DNA of 952 nucleotides from Escherichia coli (GTDB lineage Bacteria; Pseudomonadota; Gammaproteobacteria; Enterobacterales; Enterobacteriaceae): assembly GCF_003334335.1 (NCBI RefSeq), contig NZ_QOWQ01000136.1. The stretch is one strand, 5' to 3'. The position numbers and the translations under genes are program-made. Under the pieces are notes generated by a model. That model did not search any database. It was not told the DNA's origin and was given only the letters and a program-made list of their open reading frames with translations. This document shows positions 1-952 of the stretch, in pieces (position 1 is the stretch's first letter; the number at the start of each line of letters is the position of its first letter).

Positions 1-102
1 GTTGAGGTCATGAAAATTGCTGGAGATGCCCAGCTTTCTACCCCATGCACTGACAGCATCATAAACAGCATTGCAACGGGCATTCGCATCAAAGGAGAGT
101 GA
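1..102 (+). CDS. 3' end of an upstream ORF (5' truncated by the window edge); hypothetical protein, C-terminal 33 aa ...VEVMKIAGDAQLSTPCTDSIINSIATGIRIKGE*
   Basis: Frame 1 is open from base 1 to the TGA at 100..102. The stop lies 1 nt before the ATG at 104, a stop/start arrangement typical of translationally coupled phage genes. No similarity recognised from memory; a 33-codon open stretch alone is weak evidence. Confidence 0.4.
   Translation, partial: VEVMKIAGDAQLSTPCTDSIINSIATGIRIKGE
93..97 (+). promoter_or_regulatory. Shine-Dalgarno ribosome-binding site (AGGAG) for the ATG at 104
   Basis: AGGAG at 93..97 followed by a 6-nt spacer and ATG at 104..106; near-consensus SD at optimal spacing. 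It sits inside the last codons of the upstream ORF. Confidence 0.65.
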
Positions 103-103
103 G

Positions 104-295
104 ATGAACGGACAAATCTCAATTGTTCGACCGGGAGCATGTGACGATCGCGAGATACGAATGATTATTCGTCTGGCGATGGGGAGAACAATAACAGCTC
201 TCATTACTCCAGAAAATCTCGCATTAGCTTTAACCGGAAAGTCAGAACTGCCAGTGGAGCTAAAACTGCGAAATGTTGAGATTAAGGTGAAATAG
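104..295 (+). CDS. Small hypothetical protein, 63 aa (MNGQISIVRPGACDDREIRMIIRLAMGRTITALITPENLALALTGKSELPVELKLRNVEIKVK); function unknown
   Basis: ATG at 104 with an AGGAG SD 6 nt upstream; open to TAG at 293..295. The ORF track starts this frame at TTG 71, the first start-like codon after the in-frame TAA at 62..64, but that start has no SD and would overlap the upstream ORF by about 30 nt. Same strand and 2-nt gap to the downstream gene. No family recognised from memory. Confidence 0.65.
   Translation: MNGQISIVRPGACDDREIRMIIRLAMGRTITALITPENLALALTGKSELPVELKLRNVEIKVK
284..289 (+). promoter_or_regulatory. Shine-Dalgarno ribosome-binding site (AAGGTG) for the ATG at 298
   Basis: AAGGTG at 284..289 followed by an 8-nt spacer and ATG at 298..300; it lies within the last codons of the small ORF, consistent with translational coupling. 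Confidence 0.6.
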
Positions 296-297
296 CT

Positions 298-952
298 ATG
301 ACCACTATTACCAAAGAACGTATTGAATTGTTCATTAAAAATCCGCTTGAAAACGGGCTTACTCGTGGCGAACAAATGGAACTGGCACGAATTGCACTGG
401 CATCACTGGAACGCGAACAGATTCGCCACGAGCATGCCAAATGGTCTGACTCCACATTTGGCTGCGTTGGCCCCATTGGTCCACTGAAACACCTCTCAAA
501 AGAGGCACTGGAAGCCGCAGCCGAACCAGACGATCTTAGCGAGTGGGCTGATATGCAGTTTCTGTTGTGGGATGCACAGCGCCGTGCTGGCATCAGCGAT
601 GCTGAAATTACCGCTGCTATGGAAGATAAATTGAAGATCAACATGGAGCGCCAGTGGCCTGAGCCAAAAGATGGTGAGCCTCGCTTGCACATTAAAGAAC
701 CCGGCAACTCTCCGGTAATTCCGGATGGTTTATCCACGGTATGCGCTGAGGCTTATCAGGTTGTAGGAGTTATGGCAGATGCGCTTGGTGTATTCGGTGA
801 TGCAGCAGTACAGAAAGTTCTGGATAACCTGTCACAGCAAAAACTTGTTCACAGAGATGTGCTGCCGTTCTCGCTTCCGGTAACTCCGGATGGTTGGATA
901 AGCTGTAGTGAGCGAATGCCGGATGATGGTCAGCACGTAATTATTTTATGTG
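298..952 (+). CDS. MazG-like all-alpha nucleotide pyrophosphohydrolase (DUF550-like, putative dATP/dGTP pyrophosphohydrolase) fused to a C-terminal DUF551-like module; 3' partial, 218 codons visible, no stop in window
   Basis: Frame 1 is open from ATG 298 to the window end, checked codon by codon with no stop. Translation begins MTTITKERIELFIKNPLENGLTRGEQMELARIALASLEREQIRHEHAKWSDSTFGCVGPIGPLKHLSKEALEAAAEPDDLSEWADMQFLLWDAQRRAGISDAEITAAMEDKLKINMERQWPEPKDGEPRLHIKEPGNSPVIPDG... It contains E-A-L-E (aa 69-72, nt 502..513) and E-W-A-D (aa 82-85, nt 541..552), matching the ExxE...ExxD divalent-metal-binding signature of the MazG/HisE-type NTP pyrophosphatase superfamily. The C-terminal ...PDGWISCSERMPDDGQHVIILC resembles, from memory, the start of DUF551 modules found in enterobacterial prophage proteins. 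Domain assignment is from recollection of family patterns, not a database search. Confidence 0.85.
   Translation, partial: MTTITKERIELFIKNPLENGLTRGEQMELARIALASLEREQIRHEHAKWSDSTFGCVGPIGPLKHLSKEALEAAAEPDDLSEWADMQFLLWDAQRRAGISDAEITAAMEDKLKINMERQWPEPKDGEPRLHIKEPGNSPVIPDGLSTVCAEAYQVVGVMADALGVFGDAAVQKVLDNLSQQKLVHRDVLPFSLPVTPDGWISCSERMPDDGQHVIILC
711..730 (+). repeat. Direct repeat copy 1 (tccggtaattccggatggtt); encodes S-P-V-I-P-D-G-L in the CDS frame
   Basis: Read directly from the sequence: 19 of 20 nt identical to 876..895, in the same reading frame, 165 nt apart start to start. It contains an imperfect palindrome TCCGG-N5-CCGGA. Confidence 0.85.
876..895 (+). repeat. Direct repeat copy 2 (tccggtaactccggatggtt); encodes L-P-V-T-P-D-G-W in the CDS frame
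   Basis: Read directly from the sequence: 19 of 20 nt identical to 711..730 (single T/C difference at repeat position 9). It is immediately followed by the DUF551-like WISCSERMPDDG segment. Confidence 0.85.

Follow-up and report, generated by a model that had tools for sequence, protein, structure and literature searches.

Conserved boundary blocks join three closely spaced accessory genes in a probable lambdoid prophage operon of Escherichia coli

Genes that abut within one or two nucleotides raise the question whether they are simply packed side by side, transcribed as one unit, or coupled in their translation. That question arises for a 952-nucleotide stretch of an Escherichia coli genome (RefSeq assembly GCF_003334335.1, contig NZ_QOWQ01000136.1; the whole stretch is called the window below), in which a sequence-only reading had recognized three genes in tight succession. 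They are the end of an Ead/Ea22-like gene (open reading frame 1, ORF1), a homologue of the small hkaF gene of phage HK620 (ORF2) and the first part of an EaA-like gene (ORF3). The window is very probably a piece of the delayed-early operon of a lambda-like (lambdoid/P22-like) E. coli prophage, holding three co-transcribed accessory genes with tight junctions of a kind compatible with coupling and with conserved boundary blocks. The main feature, absent from that reading, is that the junctions are conserved mosaic boundary blocks common to many gene combinations.

The earlier description of the junctions, as 1-2 nucleotides (nt) long with Shine-Dalgarno (SD) sites in the upstream coding sequence, was borne out: the gaps are +1 and +2 nt, and both SD sites lie within the preceding reading frame (Table 1). 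The first junction reads ...AAAGGAGAG TGA (100-102) G (103) ATG (104), shown over 91-106, and the second ...TTAAGGTGAAA TAG (293-295) CT (296-297) ATG (298), shown over 282-300; ORF1 and ORF3 are in frame 1 of the window and ORF2 is in frame 2. The energies of the duplexes with the 16S 3' end, -8.7 and -8.5 kcal/mol, are the best two among the window's 28 AUGs, and the AGGTGA ahead of ORF3 is a perfect 6-mer complement of that end. We counted as a junction any stop codon followed at -4 to +2 nt by an ATG that opens at least 60 codons and has an SD of -8 kcal/mol or stronger. The window contains two, as against a mean of 0.0105 in 2000 dinucleotide-preserving shuffles, 0.05% of which contained two or more. 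A frameshift or read-through fusion of ORF1 with ORF2 was considered and rejected, as no slippery motif is found on reading the junction and the genes are annotated separately in all inspected records.

Table 1. Positions of the genes, initiation signals, boundary blocks and repeats in the window
Feature	Position	Strand	Description
ORF1	1..102	+	3' end (33 last codons + TGA) of Ead/Ea22-like gene; start upstream of window
ORF2	104..295	+	63-aa HK620 hkaF homologue, PHROG 1222
ORF3	298..952	+	5' 218 codons of EaA-like gene, DUF550 then DUF551; still open at 952
SD of ORF2	92-97	+	AAGGAG; inside Ea22-like coding sequence; 6-nt spacer; duplex -8.7 kcal/mol, -13.7 with extended pairing
SD of ORF3	285-290	+	AGGTGA; inside ORF2; 7-nt spacer; duplex -8.5 kcal/mol; conserved in 83 loci
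Upstream boundary block	79..103	+	GGCATTCGCATCAAAGGAGAGTGAG; encodes tail ...GIRIKGE*; carries SD and stop
Downstream boundary block	298..320	+	ATGACCACTATTACCAAAGA...; encodes MTTITKE; common to many different EaA-like genes
Direct repeat copy 1	711..730	+	20 nt, TCCGGTAATTCCGGATGGTT; linker peptide PVIPDG
Direct repeat copy 2	876..895	+	165 nt downstream of copy 1

How far these junctions are shared was examined in 83 copies, drawn from 80 IMG/VR loci with hkaF relatives and from the first five loci. The sequence ...AAAGGAGAGTGAN ATG precedes hkaF in all 83 (one as the variant GAAGGGGAAGTGAG), as does the arrangement TGA+1+ATG; the AAGGAG of ORF2 is invariant in 82 of the 83. At the second junction 79 loci have TAG+2+ATG and three have TAG+1+ATG. 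The flanking proteins of these loci are diverse, falling into 29 upstream and 30 downstream clusters at 70% identity over 80% coverage, and one upstream protein without recognizable Ea22-like sequence still ends ...AGIRIKGE. Columns conserved to 90% or more are confined to the stretch between about -25 and about +24 around ORF2, and further upstream conservation is about 30-70%. In BLAST comparisons, similarity to the window breaks off on the left at 79-81 and on the right mostly at 312-320, a distribution of breakpoints that suggests the blocks may be substrates for homologous recombination.

Each block also adjoins genes other than the ones found here. A scan of IMG/VR for ATTCGCATCAAAGGAGAGTGANATG gave 119 complete ORFs that follow it, 23 hkaF-like and 96 not. 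The 96 include at least 10 unrelated families of 49-251 residues, and in some cases the EaA-like gene comes directly next. Conversely, the downstream block, matched as ATGACCACTATTACCAAAGA with up to three mismatches, occurred in 129 distinct contexts, preceded by at least eight different genes at gaps of +2 (52), +1 (28), -4 (28), +10 (20) and +3 nt (1). The cassettes seen in the hkaF slot (IMG/VR loci L086-L205) encode proteins of 171 residues (MALTHHELCQ...), of 87, 69, 65 and 64 residues, and of 251 residues (MIHYHGGPITPDT...). Another, of 107 residues, has a C-terminal Cys-rich motif that looks by eye like a ClpX-type zinc finger.

To place the three genes in an operon, we turned to relatives of the window; of 5426 complete E. 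coli genomes, 2900 match part of it. The source-like IMG/VR contig IMGVR_UViG_2703718798_000010 (L006, positions 2898-3849) is 99.9% identical to the window, and E. coli G1/2 is 99.8% identical over 81-923. The phage early-operon setting proposed from the sequence was upheld, in that the co-oriented triad is found in lambdoid and P22-like early operons of relatives; extending the view to flanking genes, as had been suggested, brought out int, xis, a repressor gene, N and replication genes near the triad. HK620 has the same +1 and +2 nt gaps (hkaG ends at 5024, hkaF spans 5026-5217 and hkaE starts at 5220, in locus coordinates), and its triad lies in the PL operon between nutL/N and int, with no promoter or terminator annotated within it; annotated terminators lie only upstream of the triad and the integration promoter only downstream. 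The E. coli G1/2 prophage carries the triad between an XRE repressor gene and xis-int, in a run of genes with 4-10 nt overlaps or 1-2 nt separations, and in the P22-like Salmonella phage VSe13 it is likewise on the PL side. In phiv142-3, E. coli SCU-101 and L006, the triad follows the replication genes, on the PR "nin" side. Upstream of it, L006 has the gene of a P-like helicase loader and one whose product is nucleoside 2-deoxyribosyltransferase-like. Downstream are a MokW/Hok-type host-killing gene (4404-4616; PHROG 251, E 1.5e-31), the first strong + strand intrinsic terminator (4685-4702, after hok) and a DUF968-type HNH gene (5064-6110). Promoter-like matches on the + strand of L006 are at 2550-2577, inside the Ea22-like gene, and at 5339-5366, neither of them at a junction. 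In phage lambda, ea22 belongs to the exo-xis region, whose transcription is described as very early and as coming from pL (PMC10834534). From this context, co-transcription of the triad as part of a phage early operon appears well supported.

The alternative of separate promoters or terminators at the junctions, with the genes transcribed independently, is very improbable. All that speaks for it is one weak + strand terminator-like motif, the only one in the window, at 711-725, whose 5-bp stem lies inside ORF3. Against it, no sigma-70-like promoter site was found in the window on either strand, where 1.0 would be expected by chance; intergenic gaps of 1-2 nt are too small for regulatory elements; and the HK620 record shows no promoter or terminator from hkaG to hkaE. 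The original statement that none is evident between the genes thus stands. It is scarcely credible, too, that ORF2 is spurious, or is decaying between two real genes so that the second junction would be meaningless. ORF2 has no match in Pfam or NCBIfam, and the PHROG families that match it over its full length or most of it are all of unknown function; in addition, one copy (L212, 2501-2677) resembles the family only up to residue ~27 and is wholly different from there on, ending as a 58-residue protein with a scrambled C-terminus. This copy is consistent with a frameshift and, standing behind the same boundary block, with occasional decay of a cassette. On the other side, ORF2 is intact in all 83 viral loci, and among its 33 nucleotide alleles 28 of the 46 changes are synonymous and 18 are non-synonymous (61% synonymous as against 25% expected). 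Third codon positions account for 29 of the 46 changes, and the bias is gone in the other two frames. ORF2 is under purifying selection in its own frame and is a real gene. Its family comprises 84 protein clusters from Escherichia, Salmonella, Enterobacter, Citrobacter, Cronobacter, Lelliottia and Tatumella, almost all 63 residues long with a common first Met, and its AlphaFold (AF2) model is a confident one (predicted local distance difference test score, pLDDT, 83).

Whether translation of the three genes is coupled is a closer call. In E. coli, a stop-to-start distance of -8 to +10 nt is regarded as a predictor of termination-reinitiation, for which the upstream gene's final 15 nt are enough (PMC10666635). 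The window's gaps of +1 and +2 nt are within this range, and translational coupling would fit such spacing. The serious rival, which we hold to be unlikely though not lightly dismissed, is that the genes are co-transcribed but independently translated, with free 30S subunits recruited by the strong, accessible SD sites, the 1-2 nt spacing being a product of phage genome compaction and of a history of cassette recombination, with no functional coupling. Several observations weigh on the side of that rival, and against coupling as an obligatory feature. Neither junction RNA has more structure than its shuffles (z -0.95 and +0.06), and neither forms a fold that would sequester an SD, which leaves coupling by RNA structure unsupported. 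Both SDs, the strongest in the window, are thus strong and unstructured, so that the downstream gene could be translated whether or not the upstream one is. An identical EaA-like start is found at gaps of -4, +1, +2, +3 and +10 nt, and in three native E. coli gene pairs reinitiation fell by 5-70% when the gap was 2 nt (PMC10666635). Distant relatives have not kept the downstream junction: in them, hkaF and the next gene are separated by spacers of 18 nt and 97 nt, or an intrinsic terminator comes directly after hkaF. Moreover, the junction blocks of most of the 83 loci share at least 92% identity, and recent common descent, rather than selection, could account for much of the invariance there.

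Independent translation alone accounts less readily for the upstream junction. Divergent hkaF homologues (63-76% amino acid identity) keep a tight upstream junction and an embedded SD of different sequence: in Tatumella-type contigs the junction ahead of the homologue reads GGGGGAG-TAATG or TGATG (1-nt overlap), and in Enterobacter contigs (L209-L211, 2501-2740), with AAGGAGGTGAGGG-GTG, its start overlaps the upstream gene by 11 nt. The junction thus stays within -11 to +1 nt even where its sequence has diverged, which may be counted as evidence for a selected junction. Furthermore, all observed gaps are 10 nt or less, inside the range predictive of reinitiation (PMC10666635). Most likely, some coupling would be added to a competent independent initiation. 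In the same Enterobacter contigs, an intrinsic terminator (GGCCCAATATCTGGGCC followed by a T-run) stands straight after the hkaF homologue, which makes hkaF the last gene of its transcription unit there.

A sequence of events compatible with co-transcription and partial coupling can be proposed. The transcript would most likely start at a phage early promoter, which would be PR for the source-like contig but PL for phages of the HK620 type, and would read through the triad under antitermination of the N or Q type. Ribosomes that end the upstream gene would be released right on the next start site and could re-initiate, while free 30S subunits could also bind the junction SDs, these being strong and unstructured sites. 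The junction blocks of ~25 nt would travel with the small-gene cassette, placing short common peptide ends (...GIRIKGE, MTTITKE...) on unrelated neighbours, and they probably provide the short homology by which phages exchange cassettes.

These considerations lead to a tentative proposal, possible but in our view still doubtful, that the ~25-nt blocks are dual-purpose cassette linkers: a portable initiation and coupling signal that would at the same time supply a short homology for recombinases of the Red, Erf or Sak4 type, by which small genes would be swapped between Ea22-like and EaA-like anchors. If so, the locus would amount to a gene-cassette array that needs no integrase, and its linkers would mark unrelated proteins with fixed peptide tags (...GIRIKGE, MTTITKE...). 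We know of no experimental test of this dual constraint on the boundary blocks or of its scale.

The full-length counterpart of ORF1 in L006 has 186 residues (2439-2999), and its protein (2439-2996) matches Pfam PF13935, Ead_Ea22, over model positions 1-139 of 139 (E 3.7e-36); the part in the window is the C-terminal tail beyond this domain, and the equivalent gene is labelled ead/Ea22-like in RefSeq and GenBank relatives. ORF2 matches PHROG 1222 over residues 1-63 of 63 (E 2.8e-40). Its predicted fold has the order beta-beta-beta-alpha-beta and resembles only uncharacterized phage proteins. Proteins or folds like hkaF also occur outside the lambdoid group, in Escherichia phages Av-05 and vB_EcoS_ACG-M12 and Erwinia phage vB_EhrS_49 (P0068, K4FBT9, A0A4Y1NR47), so that the range of the small gene extends past the temperate lambdoid phages.

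Reading these genes from a plain ORF list would mislead, as had been pointed out from the sequence. The list leaves out the largest gene, ORF3, because the frame from 298 runs open past the end of the window, and it misplaces one start, giving ORF2 as 71..295 with a TTG. All 32 aligned family members begin at the Met of ATG 104. TTG 71 was rejected as the start of ORF2 on this ground, together with an SD energy of -1.2 kcal/mol and the lack of conservation upstream of about -25. A listed ORF at 10..102 is only the tail of the 186-residue gene seen in L006. The list also has a 151-residue ORF on the minus strand (282-737, GTG start), which lies across from the DUF550 coding region supported by Pfam and was taken to be, most probably, a shadow ORF. 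When the window was compared with Rfam (E <= 1), only a chance miRNA match, well under threshold, came back, and no non-coding RNA. For annotation, the lesson is that naive ORF lists pass over genes or give them wrong starts in the accessory regions of phages.

ORF3 is itself a mosaic, made up in order of an N-terminal module, a DUF550 domain (nt 421-708), an optional 55-codon module and the start of DUF551 (nt 892-952). Residues 42-137 match Pfam PF04447 (dATP/dGTP pyrophosphohydrolase, formerly DUF550) over model positions 1-96 of 97 (E 6.2e-42), and residues 199-217 match PF04448 (DUF551) over model positions 1-19 (E 3.6e-6); the full-length protein of L006, 266 residues, has PF04447 and a complete PF04448 (1-68 of 68, E 2.9e-20). 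Relatives are annotated as Eaa, DUF550 or dATP/dGTP pyrophosphohydrolase, and the family name suggests that the DUF550 domain is a putative nucleotide pyrophosphohydrolase. No sequence relative of ORF3 was found in the PDB at E <= 0.01. The 20-nt direct repeat TCCGGTAAYTCCGGATGGTT encodes PV(I/T)PDG and brackets the in-frame 55-codon module. Many relatives are without the module (nt 731-895) and are joined exactly at the repeat, and others have the module behind a different N-terminal half. Judged from these joints, the repeat appears to act as an intragenic mosaic linker just before DUF551.

Two further observations concern the N-terminal part of ORF3. In the near-identical locus L001, where the intact EaA-like gene lies at 8218-9051 (window 298 onward), RefSeq (PGAP) cuts it in two: 8218-8343 is given as a "pseudo" N-terminal fragment, and a coding sequence that overlaps it in the same frame begins at CTG 8317 (window 397). 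This split is probably an annotation artefact arising from the mosaic N-terminal module. In the window, a perfect 11-bp stem pairs 362-372 with 422-432 (CUCGUGGCGAA and UUCGCCACGAG; free energy -29.3 kcal/mol, z -2.9 against shuffles) and flanks a mosaic joint at about 409-418. Among relatives the 5' arm occurs alone in 21, the 3' arm alone in two and both arms in seven; because the arms occur separately, the stem is probably fortuitous.

The nearest known system is hkaG-hkaF-hkaE in the PL operon of HK620 (NC_002730), which has the same families, order and +1/+2 nt spacing and is 93% identical in nucleotide sequence over window 79-409. It differs from the window in the body of the Ea22-like gene, in that the window's EaA-like gene, unlike hkaE, has a DUF550 domain and the extra 55-codon module, and in its place in the PL ea region, whereas L006 has the triad after the replication genes, on the PR/nin side. 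The pL-driven exo-xis region of lambda (orf61, orf63, orf60a, orf73, ea22) is likewise a set of small accessory early genes that includes an Ea22 member, and this block is highly mosaic among lambdoid and Shiga toxin (Stx) phages (PMC10834534). Lambda has no hkaF or EaA-like gene beside ea22, however, and its Ea22 protein has a different C-terminal domain. The junctions are like those of E. coli pairs that undergo termination-reinitiation, with distances of -8 to +10 nt and the SD in the upstream coding sequence (PMC6728339, PMC10666635), although the most efficient of the classic coupled pairs overlap as ATGA or TGATG and the window has gaps of +1 and +2 nt.

The recombination of modules at boundary sequences is an old idea, since short conserved boundary sequences have been proposed as module-exchange sites in lambdoid phages (Susskind and Botstein 1978; Clark et al. 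2001, on HK620; both as cited in PMC2327257 and PMC3029335). The window's blocks resemble such sequences in being 20-25 nt long and conserved between phages with unrelated flanking genes, and in that the same block adjoins many alternative cassettes; they differ in lying inside coding sequence, where they double as translation-initiation regions. Arrangement, gene families, junction type (the tight one common in prokaryotes) and the idea of boundary blocks are all already known, and the locus is ordinary biology with no new mechanism. What the present analysis adds to these systems is a count of how promiscuous both boundary blocks are, and with it a clear case, in numbers, of the way in which lambdoid phages crowd their small early genes together and reshuffle them.

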